A stretch of DNA of 51,151 nt from a virus (lineage: Duplodnaviria > Caudoviricetes): the IMG/VR virus record IMGVR_UViG_3300046170_000002, positions 1 through 51,151 of that record, one strand, 5' to 3'. This document shows, one piece after another, positions 13,492 to 37,715 of the stretch (position 1 is its first letter; each line of letters opens with the position of its first letter). The notes under the pieces are model-generated. The model was not told the DNA's origin and made no database searches. It saw only the letters and a list, made by a program, of their open reading frames with translations. The translations under genes were made by a program, and so were the position numbers.

Positions 13492-15129
13492 TTAATAACC
13501 AAAAGTTGAATCAGAAGGACTAAACATATCTGATTTTATTCTTAACATCCTATCTTGTGGATGGTCCATTCTAGGTCTACTCATTAACAAATACCTTAGT
13601 GCATCATATGCGTGGTCTGCTGCATGAGTATCCACATCTTCAGGATTAGACTTAGAAAGAGGCAAAGCCTGTATTTCTTTTATTAAATTGACACATGTGT
13701 TAAATATTTGCAACCTAGGTCTTCCTGTATTATTATTCTTTCTCAGGTACTCATGTATTTGAGTCTTACCTGCTAATCTATTCTTATCAGCTCGTCTTAG
13801 TTTATGTCCTTTATTAACTAATATTTCACCAATCGTAGGACCTGTATAACCTGTCCTAGACCATGCTGCTGTATCAAGTACCCCAGCTATGGATTTTATC
13901 TCTTCCATTTCCATCTCTGTAATGGTGTCTCCGAGTGCTTCTCCTGTCAGACCTTTTTTGTATAATTCTCTATATATAATAATGGTCTTATCTTCAGGGT
14001 CGATAGCAGCCCAAAGACAGCAACTTTCTGCAGCATAACCGTAGTCTACTGCTTTAACTCTTTCCCACCACCCCGGTAATTCAAAAGGTGGTATGACGTG
14101 TGTTTCTGTCTCAAACTCTGCGAATGCTGCTCCTTCTGAGATATCCCAGTTACCTTCCAACAACTGTTTACGTTGTATGGCTGGTAAGGATTGTAGCATC
14201 CTTTCGTATTCACCGTCTTCAGCAAGGTGAGGATTATCCTGTAACAATGCTGGTATAAACTTTCTACTGAGACCGTCCTTACCTTCAAAACTTGTATTCT
14301 GTTCTGCTGGTTCTACGTATCTCTTTTTAACCCAAGCAGCACCAACACCACCGGGGTTAGCTGTACATCTTAGATAAGTCTTAATGTCTGGATTAGTAGT
14401 TCTCAAACGAGAAGCTAAATAGTTCCATCCAAACTCTGTGGGTAAGTGAGTTATCTCATCAAACCCTATCCAACTGTACGCTTGTCCTTGATAACGATAA
14501 ACATCTGCATCTCGTTCCAAGAACCCAAACTCAATCTTTGCTCCACTTGGGAACTGCCATAACTTTTCTACTTCTTTAAACTTAGCACCTTTAAAGGCTA
14601 TCGGATAAAGCTCTCGAGACTTATCTATAAGTTCTCTTAGTTCTGGCATAGACCTTCTAAGTATCAAAGCTCTATGCTCTGTTATGTGGCAGTATCGCAA
14701 CGGGTCTATTAACATTGCAAAACTTTTACCACCACCTGCTGCACCACCGTAAAGAACATCTTTCTCACCTGCAGCTAGAAAGTCTGTCTGTGGTCCTTCG
14801 TTTGGCATAAAAGCCACATGAGAACCAGTCGTATCTAAATGTTGTTGTATAGCATCAGGAAGCTCTTTTGCTTCTGATTCTGTTATAACATTAGATGTTA
14901 AAACTTTCTCTTCTTTGTCAAGTTCTTTCTTGACTCTAGCTAAACTTCTTGTTAGCTTTTTAACTTTCTTACTTTTCTTGTTAAGTTTATTCTTTGCTTG
15001 TAAAGCTAACTTAATGTCAGAAAGTTCTGAATTTTTTGGTCTACCGGGTCTAAGCCTTGGTGTACCGTCTTTCTTTAGTATATAACTCCCATCTGGGTTT
15101 GTCAAGTACTTTTTAGAATTATCTTCCAT
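13492..15129 (-). CDS. terL: Terminase large subunit
   Basis: Walker A YGGAAGGGKS, Walker B IGFDE, TANPGG, nuclease VDYGY and DHAYDALRY. Confidence 0.95.
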   Translation of the reverse strand: MEDNSKKYLTNPDGSYILKKDGTPRLRPGRPKNSELSDIKLALQAKNKLNKKSKKVKKLTRSLARVKKELDKEEKVLTSNVITESEAKELPDAIQQHLDTTGSHVAFMPNEGPQTDFLAAGEKDVLYGGAAGGGKSFAMLIDPLRYCHITEHRALILRRSMPELRELIDKSRELYPIAFKGAKFKEVEKLWQFPSGAKIEFGFLERDADVYRYQGQAYSWIGFDEITHLPTEFGWNYLASRLRTTNPDIKTYLRCTANPGGVGAAWVKKRYVEPAEQNTSFEGKDGLSRKFIPALLQDNPHLAEDGEYERMLQSLPAIQRKQLLEGNWDISEGAAFAEFETETHVIPPFELPGWWERVKAVDYGYAAESCCLWAAIDPEDKTIIIYRELYKKGLTGEALGDTITEMEMEEIKSIAGVLDTAAWSRTGYTGPTIGEILVNKGHKLRRADKNRLAGKTQIHEYLRKNNNTGRPRLQIFNTCVNLIKEIQALPLSKSNPEDVDTHAADHAYDALRYLLMSRPRMDHPQDRMLRIKSDMFSPSDSTFGY

Positions 15130-15905: not shown

Positions 15906-16071
15906 TGCCTCCTTTATTAAATATTAAATCCCAGTTATCTCTATACGTTTTAGAGTGTATATTAACTCTAGGTGCAGAACCTTTACCACCGTCTGAAGGT
16001 TTGTAAAGTCTACCCTTATTCTTTTTACTAGACATAAGGACAGGTTTCTCGTTGCTTCCTAGTTGTGGCAT
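15880..16071 (-). CDS. Small basic hypothetical protein
   Basis: 63 aa, GKGSAPR...NWDLIF; tightly packed in the operon. Confidence 0.55.
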   Translation of the reverse strand: MPQLGSNEKPVLMSSKKNKGRLYKPSDGGKGSAPRVNIHSKTYRDNWDLIFNKGGNDANKEKE

Positions 16072-16072
16072 T

Positions 16073-16363
16073 CTACCACTTTACCTTGTCAGCCCAATAA
16101 GCTGCTGACATCTTTCCTTTAGCAATGTTCTTACCGTGTCTTGCTTTAAAAGACTTTCTCTTTGCTTTCATTCTGGCTGATTCACCTGCTTTAGGTTTAC
16201 CAGCAGTCTTGGCACCCTTTTGACCAAACCTAATAGTTTTAATCTTATCACCTTCTTTAGCCACAACAATGTGTGATTTAGTCTTGTGACCCGGAGTTCT
16301 TTTAGGTTTGTTAAACCCTGAAACTCCTGCTCGTTTTAATCTACTATCTCTTTCTTTTGGCAT
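16073..16363 (-). CDS. Small Lys/Arg-rich protein
   Basis: 96 aa, KTIRFGQKG...SFKARH...SAAYWA. Confidence 0.65.
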   Translation of the reverse strand: MPKERDSRLKRAGVSGFNKPKRTPGHKTKSHIVVAKEGDKIKTIRFGQKGAKTAGKPKAGESARMKAKRKSFKARHGKNIAKGKMSAAYWADKVKW

Positions 16364-16551
16364 TAGTGTACCTTCCTTTCTTCTAATTGTATATCGTGTT
16401 GTAATTCTTGTATCTCCCCAAGAACCAACAATCCGTATTGTATTGCTATTCTATTTGCTTCAGCGACTGTATCAGCTTTAATGTATGGACCTATTGCAGC
16501 TCCATCTTCATTAACATGCTCAGTTATCCAAAGCCTAGTCATAGTCTGCAT
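16363..16551 (-). CDS. Hypothetical protein
   Basis: 62-aa ORF coupled to both neighbours. Confidence 0.5.
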   Translation of the reverse strand: MQTMTRLWITEHVNEDGAAIGPYIKADTVAEANRIAIQYGLLVLGEIQELQHDIQLEERKVH

Positions 16552-16963
16552 CCTCTGCTTCTATGATTACCGGTGCTTTATCAGGCATAAGAAAGATACC
16601 ACCACTGTTCATGTTGTGATTAATATCTACTTTATCTACTCTACTAACACCAACTCTATCTAATAACGTCTGTGCAGCAGTAAGTTTATTAGCTGCTTGT
16701 ACTATAGGTTTCTTAGATTCCATTATCTCTACAAGTTTAAAAGCTGCTTTAGGGGCTGAGTTAGCTAGTATCTCTTGAGTGAGTTCTAGTATCTCAGACT
16801 TTAAAGTCTTTACAACATGATGGTAATGGGAAGAATAACCAGCAAGTTCTGCTGCTTTCTTTGCATCACCACTAGTATTGACTAGGTGTTCTAGGAAAGA
16901 CTTCTGCTTATCTGTTAATTCTCTTTTAGTTGTTGTGTTATCTACACTTGGTAATATAGCCAT
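16535..16963 (-). CDS. terS: Terminase small subunit (probably leaderless, start MAILPSV)
   Basis: LTDKQKSFL...AKKAAELAGYS helix-turn-helix and LLDRVG; first gene of the late operon; ATG 7 nt below a -10 box. Confidence 0.7.
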   Translation of the reverse strand: MAILPSVDNTTTKRELTDKQKSFLEHLVNTSGDAKKAAELAGYSSHYHHVVKTLKSEILELTQEILANSAPKAAFKLVEIMESKKPIVQAANKLTAAQTLLDRVGVSRVDKVDINHNMNSGGIFLMPDKAPVIIEAEDADYD

Positions 16964-16969
16964 GCATCT

Positions 16970-16998
16970 AGTATACACATCGATTCTAAACTTGTCAA
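16970..16998 (-). promoter_or_regulatory. Sigma70 promoter for the packaging/head operon
   Basis: TTGACA (16998-16993), 17 nt, TATACT (16975-16970). Confidence 0.85.
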
Positions 16999-17023
16999 GC
17001 TTTAAAGTTTTTTTATGAAAGCC

Positions 17024-17052
17024 TTGACAAAAGTGGAATGCGTTGTTATACT
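17024..17052 (+). promoter_or_regulatory. Divergent sigma70 promoter firing into non-coding DNA
   Basis: TTGACA (17024-17029), 17 nt, TATACT (17047-17052). Confidence 0.8.
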
Positions 17053-17953
17053 AAACGTAGTGTCCCCTCCCGGGTCAACATATACCCACAACACCCTCAT
17101 CAAACAATTGACTGCCTAGTAGACAGGAACTTATTGTGGGCGAAATAAATACCTTTAAAGTCTTTAAAGATTTTAGAGTTTTAGTGTCGGGGCGTTAACT
17201 AGTTCTAGTTAATGACCATTATTCTAGAAAATGTATAACCATGCTATAGATATATAGGGTAGAGGGTATGGTCTCCTGCCTCCCCCTTAATAGATTTGAG
17301 ATTGCCTAAATTGGACATCTTCAAAACTCTATAACTTGTAAGGCTTCGGAGTCTTTGGGCTTTACCAGACTCTGTTCTTTTGGTAGCGTTCTCTTTATCT
17401 CTGTAAACATCTACAGAGCCTTACATTCAGAAGCTTCAGAGGATTCTTGAAGTTCTTAACGCCTTTCATCTTTAGCAAGACTATTGTCAAACAGATTCCA
17501 TGTTGCTCTGAAGTTTCTGCATTCATAGCCTCACATTCTTGTCAAACTTTTCACCTCTGCTTGACACTCTCTCAGTGGGCTTTTGTTCTATCTTTGTCAA
17601 CACTTATTATATCTGCATGGTATTTTCCATTGCAATTATCCTTTAAGAAACTCCAATCGTTAGACTAGAATGTAGTATTCACTCGGTTAAAGTTCACTCC
17701 TCTTCACTATCTGATTCAATACTCTAAAGCTTTAAAGTCAATCCTCCTAAGTCCTTGTTCCATTTTAGCCTGAGAAACTCAACTCTATAGTTTCACTCCT
17801 AATTCTATTAAAATCATAACATCTCCAAATATTTTCTAGTTTACAATGACATAAAGACTTTAAAGTGACAAATGTTTACAGTATTTCCTCGAAGACTCGG
17901 AAATCTATAAAACTTTTGTTCCCAAAACCTCACAAAACTCAAGCATTTGCAAC

Positions 17954-17982
17954 TTGAAAATCTTCATGTTTTTGTGTATTCT
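17954..17982 (+). promoter_or_regulatory. Sigma70-like promoter for the first two early genes
   Basis: TTGAAA, 17 nt, TATTCT; GGAGA Shine-Dalgarno and ATG 18001 follow. Confidence 0.6.
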
Positions 17983-18000
17983 TTAATATATGGAGATAAC

Positions 18001-18183
18001 ATGATTTTAATAGATTACTCAAACAATGAAACTATAGAGTTTCAAACAATTTCTCAGGCTAAAATGTTCACTGCAGACTTACTCGAAGTTGACATTAAAG
18101 CTTTAGGAATCAGATGTGAAGACTCATCTGACTTTAACCTCCTAGAAGACTACATTCTAGGGCTAACTCATTCCATTTCTTAA
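18001..18183 (+). CDS. Early hypothetical protein (60 aa, MILIDYSNNET...)
   Basis: GGAGA Shine-Dalgarno; lies in the right arm of the inverted repeat. Confidence 0.7.
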   Translation: MILIDYSNNETIEFQTISQAKMFTADLLEVDIKALGIRCEDSSDFNLLEDYILGLTHSIS

Positions 18184-18194
18184 AGGAGAATATT

Positions 18195-18467
18195 ATGGAA
18201 AATACATTTGATATAAACGCTTTTGACAAAGATAGAACTTCAAGCCCAGCTTCGTTCAAACAATGTCAAGCTATCGGCTACAAGTTTGCCAAGAAAGGTT
18301 CAGCTATGAACTGGAAACTTCAGAAGCAAATTACAGGCTGTCTGTATAGTCTTGCTAAAGATGAAAGACTAAACTTCAAGAAAGCTCATCAGCTTCTTCA
18401 GGGTAAGTCTCTTCCGAAGGTTTACCTCGATAAAATCGACCACTACCTAAAAGAAAAGGTCAGCTAA
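18195..18467 (+). CDS. Early basic hypothetical protein (90 aa, PASFKQ motif)
   Basis: AAGGAG Shine-Dalgarno; lies in the right arm of the inverted repeat. Confidence 0.75.
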   Translation: MENTFDINAFDKDRTSSPASFKQCQAIGYKFAKKGSAMNWKLQKQITGCLYSLAKDERLNFKKAHQLLQGKSLPKVYLDKIDHYLKEKVS

Positions 18468-18475
18468 AACCTCAA

Positions 18476-18511
18476 AGACTCTCTCGCCTTACAAGTGAGA
18501 GAGTTTCTTTA
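18476..18511 (+). terminator. Intrinsic terminator closing the two-gene cassette
   Basis: ACTCTCTC...GAGAGAGT stem followed by TTCTTT. Confidence 0.65.
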
Positions 18512-18675
18512 TGTCTGCATAAAATCTCAAATCTAATCTTAATAGTGAAATTACTTTGTAATTGCTCTTTATGAGGGCAGTCGACCACACCAAAGAAGTT
18601 AAATAAGTTAATTAAGTTAAGATAAAACTCGAGCTTTAAGTTTAAGTCGGTTGGGCTGGTAATTGAGGGCAAATC

Positions 18676-18810
18676 TGTGGATAACTTATCTAAATTTATG
18701 TATATCTTATGTATATCCTGTTAATTACTTGTGGATAAGTATAAATTATCTGTGGATATCCTGTGAATTTAAGTTTAAATTTAAGTTTGAATTTAAGTAT
18801 AATTTTAAGG
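18676..18810. promoter_or_regulatory. DnaA-box array plus AT-rich 12-mer repeats (oriC-like or injection-stop-like)
   Basis: TGTGGATAA at 18676 and 18730, TGTGGATAT at 18751; AATTTAAGTwTr x3 at 18766-18801. Confidence 0.65.
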
Positions 18811-18868
18811 TTGTGTTTAAGTCCTAGCAAACTTAAAGTATAAGTATATCTTAAGTTTGTTAAGACGC

Positions 18869-18896
18869 TTGACTTTTGCCAACGCTTCGCTAAAAT
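18869..18896 (+). promoter_or_regulatory. Early sigma70 promoter
   Basis: TTGACT, 16 nt, TAAAAT; shares upstream CTTAAGTTTGTTAAGA with the promoter at 19272. Confidence 0.65.
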
Positions 18897-18950
18897 GGGT
18901 GTCGGCTCAGCAGGGAACAAACCCCCGCTTAATTTTTAAAACAATCGGAG

Positions 18951-19238
18951 ATGATTATGAAAACGAAATGTAAAAACCCAAATGGTAAATCTAATATGCA
19001 AGTCATTCAAGACTCAAAATTGAGTGCTTTAAAATTTAATAGCCTTGACAAAGTTGAACGGTATATCAATGAGTTAGGCTATGTTTTCAAAGTAAGAAAT
19101 TCTGTTAAAGAAGATAGGTCTGTAATTTATAGACATAAGTTTCCTAAAAATGGACATGTGTTTCTTAAATCAACCTATGACTTTTTGAATGACAACACTA
19201 TGGAAATGGGAACAGTTTGGACGATTAGCAAATTTTAA
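18951..19238 (+). CDS. Early hypothetical protein
   Basis: 95-aa ORF with GGAG Shine-Dalgarno. Confidence 0.65.
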   Translation: MIMKTKCKNPNGKSNMQVIQDSKLSALKFNSLDKVERYINELGYVFKVRNSVKEDRSVIYRHKFPKNGHVFLKSTYDFLNDNTMEMGTVWTISKF

Positions 19239-19271
19239 ATATAAATATATACTTAAGTTTGTTAAGAACCC

Positions 19272-19300
19272 TTGACACCGACCGAGAAAGTTGCTATAAT
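19272..19300 (+). promoter_or_regulatory. Strong early sigma70 promoter
   Basis: Perfect TTGACA, 17 nt, TATAAT with extended -10 TG. Confidence 0.9.
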
Positions 19301-19354
19301 TTGTCGGTCAGCAACCAACCGAGACTTCAAAGTCTCATAAATATAGGAGATATT

Positions 19355-19468
19355 ATGGAAGAACGAGACCACTTAGAATTTTTAGATTTTATGACCGAAC
19401 AGGAATTAAAAGCTGAAACAATTGAAGCTAATAATGAATTAGCTGAAGATATTAACCCAATAGTATAG
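19355..19468 (+). CDS. Small acidic early peptide (37 aa, MEERDHLEF...)
   Basis: AGGAGA Shine-Dalgarno; 12 Asp/Glu versus 2 Lys/Arg. Confidence 0.6.
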   Translation: MEERDHLEFLDFMTEQELKAETIEANNELAEDINPIV

Positions 19469-19477
19469 GAGATAAAC

Positions 19478-19675
19478 ATGGCAGATATTAGATTACACAA
19501 AGTAACTAAAATTGAAATTAAAAAAGTAGACAAAGGTAATGGATATCTTTGTAGAGATATTGTTATTTATAACAAAGAATGGAATAGTGATTTAGGAGAC
19601 TATATAACTATGGAAACAACTTTAGATTTGTTTTTAGAAAATAAGTCTGCAACTAAATTAGTCTACGAGAAATAA
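19478..19675 (+). CDS. Early hypothetical protein
   Basis: 65 aa with AGGAGA Shine-Dalgarno. Confidence 0.65.
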   Translation: MADIRLHKVTKIEIKKVDKGNGYLCRDIVIYNKEWNSDLGDYITMETTLDLFLENKSATKLVYEK

Positions 19676-19792
19676 ATCCGAGAAGATGTAAGGCATAAAT
19701 TATTAAATTAAAAACTGCTTTCTTGAAGATATATAGTGCTAGGTATCACTAAAAAGTGCCTACAATATTAACTAAAAATATGGAGATATATT

Positions 19793-20200
19793 ATGGCGAA
19801 AATCGTCTATGGAAAAAGAAATACTACAACCGTTGATTCAATATATGACTACGGAAGTATAAGTGAAAAAGCTATTTGGAACTATGCAAATAGTCTAGGT
19901 GTAAATATTATTAGAGTTAGAGCTAGTAAAGAAAGATATGAAACTACTACAGGAGATACTTTCAATGGGTATCATTCAGGTAAAGTATCTATCTATCAAC
20001 AAAAGCCTAAACCAAATAAACCTTTACATTTTGTAAGAAGAACACCACTTGGTAAAGACAACAAAGGTATGCAAATACTTGAAGTTGCTGATAATATTGA
20101 TACACAACAAGTTTTAAAAACTTTACAAGACTATGAGTATTATACAACCAATGGTTTCTTTGCTAGGTTGGGTATAACATTCAGAAGAATGTTTGCTTAA
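19793..20200 (+). CDS. Early hypothetical protein
   Basis: 135 aa with GGAGA Shine-Dalgarno. Confidence 0.7.
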   Translation: MAKIVYGKRNTTTVDSIYDYGSISEKAIWNYANSLGVNIIRVRASKERYETTTGDTFNGYHSGKVSIYQQKPKPNKPLHFVRRTPLGKDNKGMQILEVADNIDTQQVLKTLQDYEYYTTNGFFARLGITFRRMFA

Positions 20201-31687: not shown

Positions 31688-32663
31688 ATGAGCTTATTAA
31701 CAACTAGAGATTATTATAAACCGTTTGAATACCCATGGATGTATGAGTATTACAAACTACAAAATCAAATGCATTGGATGCCTGAATCAGTTCCATTGCA
31801 CACTGATGTAAAAGATTGGCAGGATGTCACACCTGAAGAAAAACATTTACTGACACAGATATTTAGATTATTTACTCAATCAGATGTAGATGTAGGTGCA
31901 GGATATGTTGACAAGTATATGCCTATCTTTAAGAAACCTGAAGCAAGAATGATGATGTCATCCTTTGCTAACATGGAATCTATACACCAAGATGCTTACA
32001 GTTTATTGTTAGACACTGTAGGTATGCCTGAAATAGAATACAAAGCTTTTGCTGAGTACGAAGAAATGTCTGACAAACATGATTACGTTGGGGAGTTTAA
32101 ACCTTTAAAATCTGATAAAAGAACTATAGCTAAAACACTAGCAGTTTATTCAGCCTTCACAGAAGGGTTGCAGTTATTCTCTAGTTTTGCAATCCTCTTA
32201 AACTTCCCAAGATTTCGGTAAGATGAAAGGTATGGGACAGATAGTTACTTACTCTATCCGTGATGAGTCTATGCACGTTGAAGCTATGACTAAACTATTC
32301 CGTGAGTTTATCCAAGAGAACATAGAGATATGGACAGATGAATTTAAGGGAGAACTCTATCAGATATGTAGAGACATGGTAGAACTAGAAGACAAGTTCT
32401 TAGACTTAGTATTTGAGATGGGAGACCTTCAAGGACTAACCAAGAAAGATATGTATGCTTACAATAGATACATAGCCGACAGAAGATTACTACAGCTAGG
32501 ACTTAAAACTAATTATGACCAAAAAGAAAATCCACTAGGATGGATTGATGAAGTCATGGGTGTTGAACATCAAAACTTCTTTGAAGGTAGAGCTACAACA
32601 TATATGAAAGCAGGTCTTCGTGGTAAGCAAGACTCTATTACTTTTACGGAGATAGAGAAATGA
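31688..32663 (+). CDS. nrdB: Ribonucleotide reductase class I beta subunit (~324 aa), split by one extra base at 32213-32216
   Basis: ESIHQDAY, TEGLQLFSSF, RDESMH, NFFE; removing one base restores FPRFGKMKG. Confidence 0.9.
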
Positions 32664-33003: not shown

Positions 33004-34740
33004 TTATGTAATTGTGTAGATAATTATCTCGTCTTTCTTCCCTTTTACCTTAATTGGGTCTAAATATCTAGTAGGTATGGTAGATTTCATAGCTGTGGTG
33101 TACCCAATTACTATATCCTCTCCTACTTCTTTAGTAGAACTCTCTAGCCTTGCAGCTAGATTAACAGCATCACCAATAGCAGAGTAATCAAACCTTGTAT
33201 CACTTCCCATATTACCGACTACTGCCTCTCCTGTATTTATACCTATACCTATTTCAATACCTAGTTTGGCTTCTGCCATATCTCGGTGGATTTGTAATGC
33301 TGCTTGGATGGCTTTGGTCTCATGTTCTTCAACATCTATTGGTGCATTAAAGATAGCCATCATTGCATCACCAATATATTTATCCACCATACCGTCATAC
33401 TTTTTAACTGCATCAGCTTGTATCGTCAAAGCTTTGTTCATAATCTCTGTAACTTCTTCAGGCTCTAATCGTTCTGATAAACTTGTAAAGCCTCTAACGT
33501 CTGTAAATAAAAACGTACATCGTCTTCGTTCTCCTCCTAACTTCAGAAGCTCTGGATTATCTTGTAGTTGTTTGACTTGTCTTGGGTCAAGGTAATGTTC
33601 AAATTGTTTCTTGATTTGTTGTCTAAGTTTGTATTGAGTTCTAAAGTTTAAATAGAATTGTAAGGTAGCAATAAGTGTCATACTTATTAGAGACCATGTA
33701 AAGTCTATCAAGATATTATAGCTTACAAAGTGATACTCCATATATCCCATAAAAGAGAACAAACCTAAGAATGATATAACACCCTTAGTGATACCTAGAT
33801 ACTTTATTAGAAGAGCTGTGAGTAAGCCTGAGACTATTAATAATAATAGTTCAACAAACAACCTATAGTCTGGTATCTGTGGTGTATCCATCAACATACT
33901 TTCTGATAGAGCTGCTTGTATTTTATGTGGTTCTAATAGACCTATAGGTGTTGCAAGTTGTGGTGATATACCCTTGGCTGTAAAACCTACGAACACAAAC
34001 TTACCTGCAACATTCATCTCAGTTAGTGTTGTTTGTGGTGTATCTACCCAACTAATCCATTTACGACCAAGGCTATCTGTGGCAATGGGTGGAATGCCTC
34101 TAACTCTAACCTGTTCAATTCCATTCAGATTTGTGACAATCTGATAAGTACGACCACCTCCTAGTATTTTTAAAACTTCTGTTCCAAACGAAGCAACCCA
34201 CCCATTATTAGTTTGTTGTAGTAAAGGGTATACGCCTTACTAAATTATCTACATCTACTGGTGCAGATATAGCACCTTGACTAGCTGATTGTTTTAAAGG
34301 TTCTATGTTCTCTAAAAAGCCTTGAGCTTTTGGTAAAGATACTATTGGTCCTTTGATAACTGTACCAACTGTCTTTGGATAGTTACTATTAGTTTACTTC
34401 TGGCATAGCTATAACACTTGGAGAGCTTTGTAAAGCTTTAGAGAAACTCATCATCTCCACCCATTCTATCTGCATGTGGGAATAACATAACCCATCCAAC
34501 ACCTAAAGCACCTGCGTTTATTATATCGTTATGAATCTTTGCAAGTGTTTCTCTAGGCAGGGGATATCCACCTTGTTCATCTAGGAAAGTTTCGTCTATG
34601 TTGAGGATTGTAAAGTATCCGGTAGGTTCTGGAGTTGTGACAAGAGCATCAAAGGTTTTGAGTCTTAGTACTTCTAGTGGTACACTGTTGAAGAGGAGAG
34701 GCAAAGTTAATAGAGTTAATAAGGTGATTGCCCACTTCAT
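33004..34740 (-). CDS. Membrane CHASE2-type class III adenylate cyclase (~577 aa), interrupted by three extra bases
   Basis: N-terminal TM, ILNIDE...YPLPR and DVDNLVRRIP sensor motifs, three TMs, cyclase motifs FTDVRGFT, DKYIGDA, DYSAIGDAVNLAARLES; extra bases at 34443-34446, 34391-34394, 34225-34228. Confidence 0.85.
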
Positions 34741-34741
34741 G

Positions 34742-35848
34742 TTAGTCTCCTTGCGTTATAGTTATGGTAGAGTTACCACCACCGTTGACAACTATCTGTG
34801 TACTCTTACCATTTTGTATCATTACAATAGTGTAAGCATTTGATTTATCTAAATCTAATTTAATAGTATCTTCTAAAGCTTTATAAAATGTTATGACGTT
34901 ATCAGTCATAAAAGTATTTATCTGAGTCTCACTATCGTACCCAATCTTAGTACCTTTTAAATCTATATCAGTTTTTAAAATTGTTGAAGTTTGGTCTAGC
35001 TCATTGACATCTTCTATAATGTCTAACAAGTCTTCAAGAAAGTTTACATCTAAATAATTAATGTCTAACTCTGTAAACTCTAAACTGTCTTCTGCAAGAT
35101 AGTCTGTTTCTAAATCATCAAACTCAAGGAAGTCAACATCAAGACTACTAACATTACTCCCTCCATCTTCTCCTTCATTTTGTTCTACTTCCCTAGGTGT
35201 ATTTACAATTAACATGTTATCAATTAACTCTAGGGTCAAGTCAAGGATAACGGGATTCGTTGGTTTAGTTTCAAACATAGAAACTGTTGTAGCTTGGTAA
35301 GGCTTGTTAAGAACTACCTGTCCCATAGCTGTTGCGACAACTATCTCTCCACTTGGAAGACCGTCATCGTCTGGTAATAATATAACTAAACTTCTACCTA
35401 ACTCATCTACAGTTACAGTAAAGTCTGTACCACGAATACCAATCGTAGCACTTGGAGTTTGTATAGATATATTTTCTTTATCTATTGATGCTAACTTACC
35501 TGTAATAAATCTTGCAGTACCACTTGCAAATTGTAAAGCCATCTTAGATTTAGAAGGGTCTGGGTCATAGATAAATTCATCTATAATTAATTCAGAATGT
35601 TCAGTAAGTCTAACTTGACTGTCATCTAAAAAAGTAATGCCCAATCTCCCGTTAGAAGTTTGGACATTATCGTAGCTGTTGATGTCTAATGCTAGAGAAG
35701 CTTGAAAAGTTTTGTCTCTTACGACTCTACCTGTTCCGTTTAGTTCAGTTATATTGCCTATATTAGCAACCGACTGCTGTTCCCCCATCGTTTTGAATGA
35801 CACAAATAGTGCCACTAGAACCATCAGATGTAATTTGTAACCAGTCAT
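34742..35848 (-). CDS. FecR-domain periplasmic protein with acidic C-terminal region (start may be 35824)
   Basis: Signal-like N-terminus; ITFLDDSQVRLTEHSEL...GTARF...TPSATIGIRGTDF. Confidence 0.8.
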   Translation of the reverse strand: MTGYKLHLMVLVALFVSFKTMGEQQSVANIGNITELNGTGRVVRDKTFQASLALDINSYDNVQTSNGRLGITFLDDSQVRLTEHSELIIDEFIYDPDPSKSKMALQFASGTARFITGKLASIDKENISIQTPSATIGIRGTDFTVTVDELGRSLVILLPDDDGLPSGEIVVATAMGQVVLNKPYQATTVSMFETKPTNPVILDLTLELIDNMLIVNTPREVEQNEGEDGGSNVSSLDVDFLEFDDLETDYLAEDSLEFTELDINYLDVNFLEDLLDIIEDVNELDQTSTILKTDIDLKGTKIGYDSETQINTFMTDNVITFYKALEDTIKLDLDKSNAYTIVMIQNGKSTQIVVNGGGNSTITITQGD

Positions 35849-36479: not shown

Positions 36480-37273
36480 ATTTCCAATAGCCTCTCTCTA
36501 TTCCAATATTGATTATATTTAATACTCCAGTCTCTACAGCTTTTTGTAAAGCTATTGAAACACTTTCGTTCTCTGATATACCACCCTCTATTTCTACTAG
36601 CTCTGTGCCAGTCTCAATAAAACGAAATACATCCTGAGAAACACTTGTAGATAAAATGCTTTTGGATACTAATGTTTCCATAAGAACTTCACCAGGTAGA
36701 TACAGATACTAACCTTAAAGATATAGTAACTGTGTCTTCCCTAAACTGTTTACTTGTACCTATACCTAAGTACCTTGCACCAGAACCTCCAGATTTTAAA
36801 TTAGCTTCATAACTAATTACTCCACCTTGGACTAACAACCCTGCAAATAATAGTGGTTGCATCTTATTATCTTCTTTAAAATCTTTACGTGTACTACGTA
36901 TGAGTTGTCTTTCTTTTGTTAGGTCATCTAAACCTACACTTTCTACAACTCTAAAAAACTTTCCACCTGCTGTATGCTTAAAAGCTCTAATAAGAAAAGC
37001 TTCAGGTGCTTGTGTTACAGCAGTACTAAACAAAGCAAAGGTACTATTACTTCTTCTCTGACCTGTTAAATCTCTAAAGCTATTAGGGTATATAGCTATC
37101 GTTGGTCTTATTTGTGCTGGTGGTAAATTCCTTAACTCTTCTGATTGTAAATCTAATGTAGAACTAGACTGGACTTTTTTAGTTAAAACTAAATCTCCAC
37201 TCTCTTGTACTACTGCACAACTAGAAAGTAAAGTTACCAACAGGCAAAGATATAGTCGTTGTATTGCCATCAC
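36415..37273 (-). CDS. csgG: Curli secretion pore CsgG-like lipoprotein, split by one extra base at 36694-36697
   Basis: Lipobox LLSSC; FRDLTGQRR, FSTAVTQ, LTKERQLIR, GGSGARYLGIG, LRLVSVSTGEVL after correction, GYW near the end. Confidence 0.9.
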
Positions 37274-37715
37274 TGTCCGTTATAGTTAAAGTTATTATTC
37301 CGTCTTCTACGTTATAAACAATTGTATTGCCTTCTAAAGTTAATGTACCACTATCAGAAGGAACCTCACCAAACAAGTTTTCTACTAACTGTCTTGATAG
37401 TTGTGAGTATATTCTTGACTCTAAGTTTCTTATAAATCTTGCTAGAGTTGTATTTTCTTTATCTCTTTCTATCTGGTCTTGTAAAGCTTTTATCTCTGCT
37501 TTAAGAGCTGCCTTACGGTTGAACTCTTGGTTTTGGATGGTAAGATAATGTGAGCTAGTGTTCACACCGTTAAAGCTAGGACTCTTAAACTTAAATACTA
37601 TCTCATCTGCAATACTTCCTACAGACCAAAACATAATTAACATAGTCCAAAAGAACATACAAAACTTGCAGTTCCTTGAAGCTTTTTCACTTTTAAATGT
37701 TGGTTTTAATTTCAT
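37221..37715 (-). CDS. csgF: Curli assembly component CsgF-like
   Basis: Signal peptide then EIVFKFKSPSFNG; FIRNLESRIYSQLSRQL; directly upstream of csgG. Confidence 0.8.
   Translation of the reverse strand: MKLKPTFKSEKASRNCKFCMFFWTMLIMFWSVGSIADEIVFKFKSPSFNGVNTSSHYLTIQNQEFNRKAALKAEIKALQDQIERDKENTTLARFIRNLESRIYSQLSRQLVENLFGEVPSDSGTLTLEGNTIVYNVEDGIITLTITDSDGNTTTISLPVGNFTF

Follow-up and report, generated by a model that had tools for sequence, protein, structure and literature searches.

The IMG/VR virus record IMGVR_UViG_3300046170_000002, analysed here over its whole length of 51,151 bases (the window), is that of a tailed phage and contains an imperfect palindrome of approximately 1.25 kb, referred to below as the rod. 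Its left arm (17287-17885) pairs with its right arm (18542-17934), which carries two small genes, A and B, next to a putative replication origin. Comparison with related phages shows that the palindrome is a conserved functional hairpin, the non-coding arm of which is kept complementary to the other by compensating changes. The selection that maintains it very probably acts on the pairing of the minus strand only. What folds is tentatively taken to be an RNA transcribed leftward, with single-stranded DNA as the chief alternative.

In a local alignment of the left arm with the reverse complement of the right arm, 634 columns hold 444 matches, 130 mismatches, and 60 gap columns. A global alignment gives 593 pairs, of which 456 (77 %) are of the Watson-Crick type. 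The arms are joined by the rod tip (17886-17933), at which a small apical hairpin is located (approximately 17883-17906). On the plus strand of the right arm, gene A (18001-18183, 60 amino acids) is followed by gene B (18195-18467, 90 amino acids) and, in the base of the arm, by the intrinsic terminator of both genes (18476-18516), with its terminator-like hairpin at 18476-18506. This arm functions as a transcription unit, and its minus strand is antisense to genes A and B. The left arm is a non-coding mirror of the two genes and their terminator: when it is read on the minus strand, the gene copy is found to be interrupted by stops and frameshifts.

An earlier note, made from the letters of this DNA, had claimed that the mismatches between the arms are strand-specific, forming G.A and G.T pairs when the minus strand is folded. 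Alignment of the arms and tabulation of the mismatches confirmed this, with 38 G.A mismatches on the minus strand versus 13 on the plus strand (binomial p = 6e-4; local alignment) and 22 versus 10 G.T mismatches (p = 0.05, marginal when taken alone). For all purine.purine mismatches the numbers were 69 and 29 (p = 7e-5). The global alignment gave minus-to-plus ratios of 39:13 for G.A and 27:11 for G.T, and 14 G.G against 2 C.C. Both substitutions that the note had cited as examples, TAAAGCC/TAAAACC and CTGTTTG/CTGTCTG, read as A.C when the plus strand is folded and as G.T when the minus strand is. The tandem motif 5'-GA-3'/3'-AG-5' occurs eight times on the minus strand and never on the plus strand; the pairings of TC at 17427-28 with TC at 18398-99 and of 17400-01 with 18427-28, to which the note had pointed, are two of these eight. 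Among the ten adjacent G.A/G.A doublets in the window, eight have the GA/AG orientation, a share predicted by dinucleotide frequencies to be 0.34 (p = 0.004). Tandem sheared GA/AG pairs are stable in both RNA and DNA.

The mismatches also make the two strands fold with different energies. The RNA minimum free energy of the window rod is -547.3 kcal/mol for the minus strand versus -467.6 kcal/mol for the plus strand, and with DNA parameters the values are -291.7 and -265.6 kcal/mol, respectively. The note had called for a test of the minus-strand excess against randomised models. When the mismatches were mirrored to the other strand at random, the difference between minus and plus averaged -11.9 kcal/mol (sd 15.5) compared with the observed -79.7, which none of the 34 randomisations equalled (z = -4.4). 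What the note inferred from these mismatches is supported more strongly by the relatives of this phage than by the window alone.

Using a search with protein B, 60 related loci (numbered with the prefix L) were found in viral contigs. The whole palindrome is present in 57 of them, while L032, L056, and L062 are cut by contig ends. Together with the window, this gives a comparative set of 58 sequences, 53 of which are distinct. The orthologous palindromes are 54.0-86.4 % identical to that of the window, and the arms within each genome are complementary at 75.5-88.2 % of positions, counting Watson-Crick pairs. Double changes at paired sites were observed far more often than expected under independence: 18 versus 2.7 between the window and L007, 31 versus 8.9 between the window and L014, and 27 versus 4.4 between L008 and L025. 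Most of these swap one Watson-Crick pair for another. Changes confined to a single arm fell on the left rather than the right arm in ratios of 39:5 and 70:5 in two comparisons; the left arm evolves faster than the right arm and yet tracks it. In 13 comparisons, 196 compensated doubles were counted, of which 112 are of the transition type and 84 of the transversion type. As only 24 of the 196 lie within 2 nt of another and the remaining 172 stand alone, they do not form tracts. Maintenance of pairs by compensatory change, as is characteristic of structured RNAs, is thus seen both in these doubles and in the interconversion of G.U with Watson-Crick pairs. All these comparisons used arm alignments made per genome, because alignments of the whole palindrome misalign the arms: covariation from a MAFFT whole-palindrome alignment covers only 204 majority pairs with many misaligned cells, and the left arm aligns poorly in a second alignment.

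The strand asymmetry was summed using one representative for each of 26 clusters at 90 % identity, which together provide 14,139 aligned pairs, 11,397 of them Watson-Crick. The minus-to-plus totals were 697:282 for G.T, 517:301 for G.A, and 234:57 for G.G. The numbers of A.A and T.T on the minus strand (335 versus 319) were uninformative. Counted by cluster, the minus strand was the higher in 20 and the plus strand in 5 for G.T, with 22:4 for G.A and 21:3 for G.G; clustering at 80 % identity (17 clusters) gave 12:5, 13:4, and 12:3, respectively. The most extreme lineages for G.T were L005 (61:5), L006 (62:7), L061 (60:11), and L040 (49:6). In the L005 clade, the wobbles are derived relative to L004, L003, and the window; 23 of them arose by A>G and 11 by C>U on the minus strand, and 1 was of the plus-strand type. 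The asymmetry is strongest opposite the coding part, where minus-strand G.U makes up 7 % and plus-strand G.U about 1 %, compared with 5.3 and 3.3 % elsewhere. Of the 41 loci folded as RNA, 37 had the more stable fold on the minus strand, with a margin of up to 234 kcal/mol; in L004 and L010 the two strands were equally stable. With DNA parameters the minus strand was more stable in all 12 loci tested (e.g., -311.4 versus -221.8 kcal/mol).

The orientation of the tandem mismatches follows thermodynamic rules as well. Summed over the 53 loci, GA/AG occurs 99 times on the minus strand and 7 times on the plus strand, and the ratio of GA/AG to the opposite orientation, AG/GA, is 99:10. Of 67 tandem G.U pairs on the minus strand, 33 are UG/GU and 34 are GG/UU, while GU/UG, the least stable and rarest tandem wobble in RNA, is absent. 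The dinucleotide content predicts a share of 0.20 for GU/UG, giving P = 2e-7 under an assumption of independence that is not fully valid. G.U pairs on one strand and in thermodynamically favoured orientations are a hallmark of structured RNA. This bias across 26 clusters, together with the orientation rules, supports the proposal in the earlier note that selection acts on the folded minus strand.

Mutation was examined as a source of the bias by assigning singleton states in nine triples of related rods to terminal branches. This procedure dropped 1,360 sites at which the partner base differed between the compared lineages, so that the counts represent the cleanly assignable part. At unpaired rod positions, plus-strand changes showed no strand bias (T>C 37 versus A>G 36; G>A 29 versus C>T 25), whereas the same contrasts at Watson-Crick paired sites gave 79 versus 19 and 34 versus 14. 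Watson-Crick pairs changed to minus-strand G.U 113 times and to plus-strand G.U 33 times. In the other direction, 100 reversions from minus-strand G.U to Watson-Crick pairs and 136 changes from mismatch to Watson-Crick pairs were counted. At four-fold degenerate sites of the flanking genes, C exceeds G and T exceeds A on the coding strand (skews of -0.20 and -0.12, and of -0.26 and -0.21), the asymmetry between C and G being only 1.5- to 1.7-fold. Because the sign is the same whichever way the gene points, this modest bias is linked to the coding strand and not to replication. As the bias in the rod is confined to paired sites, mutation bias is excluded as its cause, and it is very likely that selection acts on minus-strand pairing only.

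Genes A and B, to judge from their sequences, are real. The open reading frame (ORF) of gene A is kept in the relatives, among which differences at codon positions 1, 2, and 3 number 873, 602, and 999 for gene A and 1851, 1221, and 4355 for gene B. The first eight residues of protein B are invariant. An AlphaFold2 model (mean pLDDT 83.6) predicts a five-helix protein for gene B, a fold for which no Foldseek match was obtained in the PDB at E ≤ 0.001. Neither gene belongs to a Pfam or PHROG family, and their neighbours in the atlas are all annotated as hypothetical proteins, with scores below 0.9. Pairing is about 80 % Watson-Crick opposite every codon position. None of the relatives has full mirror genes in its left arm; fragments only were seen in this comparison of open segments, and the longest of those resembling A or B were 79 and 44 amino acids in L031 and 103 amino acids in L060. 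The stem of the terminator differs in sequence between relatives, with the hairpin and T-run retained in every lineage.

Two observations concern the terminator and the tip. Where 17344-17355 faces 18480-18489, the left arm has a conserved 4-nt change that places CGAA opposite AGAG on the minus strand. It removes the mirror of the gene B terminator hairpin while the flanking rod pairs are retained, and its conservation extends from the window to L031. The hairpin CCTCGAAGACTCGG, located at the rod tip of the window (17883-17906), is found again in the right flanks of L022, L027-L029, and L047-L052, where it follows gene B on the right and resembles a terminator; it behaves like a movable module.

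To the left of the rod lies a divergent pair of promoters that is common to the 53 loci. The sigma-70-like promoter on the minus strand (16970-16998; TTGACA-17-TATACT, 11 of 12 positions matching) faces terS, and the 53-locus flank alignment shows its -35 element (plus-strand reading TTGTCAAG) to be conserved. The promoter on the plus strand (17024-17052), also sigma-70-like with 11 of 12 matches and a TG, leads into the leader and the rod; its cTTGACAAAA...TA.AaT is conserved in the 53 loci. The leader block that follows (17188-17285, plus strand) comprises hairpins at approximately 17193-17214 and 17238-17273 and a loop of variable length, in which several lineages carry an insertion of 10-12 nt. 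It is conserved in all 26 aligned relatives, far more so than the rod, and is followed by an invariant GGTCTCCTGCC. The wobbles of the leader hairpins are found on the plus strand: pair 205-234 is G.U in 26 of 26 relatives, and pair 211-228 is U.G in 22 and U.A in 4. Because the wobbles in the hairpins of this conserved block are plus-strand ones, transcription into a rightward leader RNA is likely. The block, for which Rfam has no match, may be a small RNA or a structured 5' leader.

The right flank contains an origin-like module (18560-18900) with two small hairpins. Iteron-like repeats of the type (T)TGAGGGC are present on the plus strand at 18572-18578 and 18663-18670, accompanied by a conserved GTCGACCA and CTCGAG; direct repeats of the GGTTGAGGG type occur in one to three copies in nearly all relatives listed. 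A second small hairpin is located in this flank, further to the right of the gene B terminator. DnaA-box-like 9-mers, scored with the DnaA-box consensus, lie in one orientation on the minus strand between 18676 and 18759. Those at 18676 and 18730 are perfect, and are the sole perfect matches in the 51-kb window, while the one at 18751 has one mismatch; the spacing is about 21 and 54 nt. At the same place, 22 of 50 relatives have two to four such 9-mers in one orientation, and in 23 of 50 no such box was found in the right flank. Some relatives carry other repeated motifs in place of the DnaA boxes, e.g., TTGTCAC...AATGTTAC in L022, L027, and L028. Further to the right follow AT-rich 12-nt tandem repeats (18764-18811), a candidate DNA unwinding element, an inverted repeat (18821-18866), and the next rightward promoter (18869-18896). 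The cumulative GC-skew minimum is at 18.1-18.7 kb. The right flank, which thus combines the DnaA boxes, direct repeats, and AT-rich element of an iteron/DnaA-type origin, is on the basis of these motifs read as a replication origin.

The record has an estimated completeness of 97 %. Its genes are on the minus strand to the left of approximately 17.0 kb, including those for TerL (13492-15129) and TerS (16535-16978), and on the plus strand from 18.0 kb to approximately 32.9 kb. It further encodes portal, major head, and tail-fibre proteins, DNA polymerase A, ribonucleotide reductase, a gp2.5-like single-strand binding protein, an exonuclease, and endonuclease I. The ORFs scanned included none with a match to a helicase or primase family. 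The nearest cultured relatives are the Pelagibacter phages HTVC115P, HTVC104P, and HTVC103P, the TerL proteins of which are 66-67 % identical to that of the window. Public phage records gave no match for the window DNA or for the gene B protein, and across the joined ends of the HTVC115P record no palindrome was obtained (score 91 versus a shuffled maximum of 97). In the regions 33004-34017, 34742-35848, and 36689-37715, minus-strand ORFs encode an adenylate/guanylate cyclase catalytic domain (E 1e-20), a FecR domain, and CsgG-/CsgF-like (curli secretion) domains. The small subunit of ribonucleotide reductase is apparently split over the adjacent ORFs 31688-32221 and 32223-32663, the first corresponding to the front of the family and the second to profile positions 178-281 of 281. 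This could be due to a frameshift, a sequencing error, or a real split.

Our tentative preference for the folded molecule is a leftward RNA over single-stranded DNA; this is a leading possibility and not yet a probable one. An RNA of approximately 1.3-1.7 kb would be transcribed leftward from the origin side. The 5' half of this RNA would be antisense to both genes, and the 3' half, which corresponds to the left arm, would fold back on it to form an imperfect duplex of about 600 bp. Such a hairpin RNA could silence genes A and B or control their timing, or it could act as a stable double-stranded RNA. The mismatches that persist in the rod are those that a folded minus strand tolerates, i.e., G.U/T wobbles, tandem sheared G.A, and G.G. 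When G.U is counted as a pair, the paired fraction is more uniform across lineages (86.0 %, sd 2.7) than with Watson-Crick pairs alone (81.3 %, sd 3.8), which favours RNA. RNA is also favoured over DNA because G.U-rich rods keep their stability as RNA (-0.512 per nucleotide in the G.U-rich L005, -0.487 in L004) and lose about 20 % of it as DNA (-0.255 per nucleotide in G.U-rich versus -0.321 in near-perfect rods). The main route to wobbles, from A:U to G.U (23 versus 11 by C>U), and the A-rich, C-poor composition of the true minus-strand mismatches were likewise counted in favour of RNA. Contigs from RNA libraries cover the non-coding left arm, e.g., 641 nt at 17255-17895; they are unstranded, and DNA carry-over is possible. 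As these runs consist of contigs, stretches that are left uncovered (the right arm in X3 and X7, the left arm in X4) carry no weight.

Several findings weigh against selection on a minus-strand fold or against its being an RNA. The G.A excess in the window is by itself close to that expected from the general purine richness of the minus strand; it is the tandem-motif orientation and the related phages that make the case. No G.T asymmetry is present in the L011 group (5:9), L014 (12:14), L053 (6:7), or L059 (6:8), and L060 is reversed in all three classes (e.g., G.T 12:19 and G.A 8:15). L060 and the L011 group still keep the palindrome, the latter aligning approximately 454 pairs versus about 590 elsewhere. 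In the 39 loci with an anchor, the stretch to the right of the rod showed no leftward promoter at a conserved position; the best 10-nt bin held 13 of the 39 loci, in an AT-rich part with equally common plus-strand matches. The clear transcription signals, present on either side of the rod, all point rightward, i.e., the promoter at 17024-17052, the leader hairpins with plus-strand G.U, and the covarying terminator, and a leftward RNA must cross both the gene B terminator and the origin. The RNA evidence consists of contigs alone, which have no strand, start, or end. The orientation rules for tandem G.A and G.T hold for DNA too, so that they do not discriminate between RNA and single-stranded DNA.

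The principal rival to the leftward RNA is a fold of single-stranded DNA, in which the minus strand, as the lagging-strand template of a leftward fork, would be single-stranded for a time over roughly an Okazaki length and fold into the rod. This is somewhat unlikely. The structure could serve as a priming or primosome-loading signal, as a fork pause biasing replication rightward, or as a programmed break site. It would need no leftward promoter, and the origin-like architecture directly to the right of the rod (30-330 nt), at which the GC-skew minimum is also located, would put it in a fitting place. The phage's own DNA polymerase A, gp2.5-like single-strand binding protein, and endonuclease I, with no detected helicase or primase family, also speak for this reading. 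The greater stability of the minus strand by DNA energies in 12 of 12 loci is equally in keeping with it, and the order of the minus-strand mismatches, G.A, G.T, A.A, G.G, T.T, C.T, A.C, C.C, roughly follows the series of mismatch stabilities in DNA. Against this stands the cost of changing A.T to G.T in DNA, which is nevertheless the commonest route to a wobble, and the loss of approximately 20 % of DNA stability, with none of RNA stability, in G.T-rich lineages. Known single-strand initiation hairpins measure 40-300 nt and not 1.25 kb, single-strand binding proteins would oppose the folding of a hairpin with 12-25 % mismatches, and the origin has been assigned from motifs only.

The other rivals, taken together, are unlikely. 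One is that an old inverted duplication decays neutrally while mutation is strand-biased, whether by replication- or transcription-linked deamination or oxidation. This would agree with the negative GC skew of the rod plus strand, which resembles that of the region to its left, and with a left arm that holds no intact genes. It has next to no probability: complementarity of 75-88 % persists while orthologues diverge to 54 % identity, paired sites co-vary, the non-coding flanks have a GC skew of about 0, unpaired rod positions show no strand bias, and the bias at four-fold sites is weak and tied to the coding strand. The case that the earlier note made against neutral decay is thus borne out by the co-evolution of the arms and by the lack of mutational strand bias at unpaired positions. 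An improbable reading dispenses with the minus-strand fold altogether: the palindrome would be kept because its arms are mechanically homogenised, through gene conversion or template switching, or because a DNA cruciform is needed, and selection would act only against pairing in plus-strand RNA. To let genes A and B be translated and the terminator form, it would favour the mismatches that disrupt plus-strand pairing most, A.C, C.U, and C.C, and these would incidentally appear as G.U, G.A, and G.G on the opposite strand. The conserved promoter and leader make it plausible that the left arm is transcribed on the plus strand, the asymmetry is strongest opposite the coding part, and 84 of the 196 compensated doubles are of the transversion type, for which no wobble intermediate is possible. 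Homogenisation of inverted-repeat arms by template switching has been described (PMC8604942, PMC7202029). The orientations of GA/AG and tandem G.U, on the other hand, should be irrelevant in plus-strand UC/CU or CA/AC loops; these rules are meaningful only for real minus-strand pairs. The compensated doubles are scattered and not in tracts, the return flux to Watson-Crick pairs is high (100 from minus-strand G.U, 136 from mismatch), and L004 and L010 tolerate plus and minus strands of equal stability. Functional pairing between plus-strand RNAs, in which transcription from the promoter at 17024-17052 would make the left arm a long 5' leader or a trans-acting antisense RNA that pairs with the A/B mRNA to control the genes, as in plasmid copy-number control or the c4 RNA of P1, is very improbable. 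The conserved rightward promoter, the structured plus-strand leader, the position of genes A and B next to the origin, and unstranded RNA-library contigs covering 17086-17895 without the right arm in two runs would fit it. Selection for plus-strand pairing, however, predicts the opposite asymmetry: the plus/plus duplex holds non-pairing partners, A.C in place of G.U, in a ratio of 697:282 over the 26 clusters and of 61:5 in L005, and plus-strand RNA is the less stable in 37 of 41 loci. The earlier note had also argued against a simple hairpin in plus-strand mRNA, and its argument holds, since the plus strand contains A.C and pyrimidine.pyrimidine mismatches and its RNA is less stable. A cruciform in duplex DNA as the sole function was rejected, as it predicts no strand asymmetry.

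The rod shares features with several known systems. As in hepatitis delta virus and Obelisks, there is a rod of approximately 1.2 kb with about 75-88 % pairing, ORFs on one arm, and a non-coding other arm, and, as in delta virus, the strand that folds better is complementary to the coding one. Unlike these agents, which are autonomous circular RNAs that usually contain self-cleaving ribozymes, the phage rod is a segment of a 51-kb double-stranded DNA phage and is embedded, with both flanks, in 57 DNA contigs. No match to any family in Rfam 15, which includes ribozymes, was obtained at E ≤ 1 on either strand of 16000-20000, and no ribozyme family was found in 16.0-20.0 kb. It is extremely improbable that the rod serves as DNA template for a rod RNA resembling those of delta virus or Obelisks, approximately 1.2 kb in length, with ORFs on one arm and launched from a phage genome. 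The strand of non-coding sense would then be the one that is stable and selected, and in the infected cell it might persist, or act, as an independent double-stranded RNA entity. A gene is also combined with an inverted copy in hairpin-RNA loci of eukaryotes and in young microRNA genes that arose when a target gene was duplicated in inverted orientation, and their G.U asymmetry likewise reveals the choice of strand. In the phage, by contrast, the working gene itself is one arm, the bacterial host has no Dicer pathway, and the arms have co-evolved over deep divergence without decay.

Counter-transcripts such as R1 CopA, ColE1 RNA I, and those of pT181 and P1 c4 are comparable in that genes A and B adjoin an iteron/DnaA-box origin and that a minus-strand RNA would be antisense to them. 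They are stem-loops of 50-150 nt made from a defined promoter on the opposite strand, whereas the phage rod measures 1.25 kb, its antisense part is paired to a mirror in cis, and no conserved promoter for it was found. Hairpin signals in single-stranded DNA, among them the single-strand origins of rolling-circle plasmids, ssi/primosome assembly sites, RSF1010 ssiA/ssiB, F Frpo, the N4 hairpin promoters, and mitochondrial OriL, are imperfect hairpins of one strand, located on the strand exposed by a fork leaving a nearby origin. The rod resembles them as a strand-specific hairpin beside an origin-like module, the exposure of its strand being deduced from geometry. They are compact (tens to approximately 300 nt), while the rod, with arms of about 600 nt each, is 5-30 times longer and has one coding arm, and its G.T-rich variants are poorly explained by DNA energetics. 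Quasipalindromes homogenised by template switching, as treated in PMC7202029 and PMC8604942, are imperfect inverted repeats with arms that stay alike. Template switching predicts multi-nucleotide tracts and neither strand-specific mismatch classes nor motif orientation; in the rod, 172 of 196 doubles stand alone and a strand preference is evident.

Such a structure is not described in the literature searched on pelagiphages, origins, quasipalindromes, and long hairpin RNAs, and the main text of a pelagiphage preprint (10.1101/2019.12.14.876532) does not contain the terms 'inverted', 'palindrom', 'hairpin', or 'origin of'. Because it fails the defining features tested for each of its nearest analogues, the rod is classed as a structured single-strand element outside any named family. 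We know of no bacterial or phage RNA family or single-stranded DNA signal of such size and design.

In conclusion, the palindrome is a natural example of two constraints, a protein code and base pairing, imposed on the same 600 bases, and its 57 natural variants already constitute a series of compensatory mutations for the design of tests. If the rod did prove delta-like or Obelisk-like, it would connect viroid-like rods with DNA phages. Should the minus-strand fold be real, an imperfect duplex of approximately 600 bp, made up of two working genes and their co-evolving non-coding mirror, lies against the replication origin in an abundant group of marine phages. This would then be a long hairpin RNA, the first from a phage, or else a new strand-specific, origin-proximal DNA structure.

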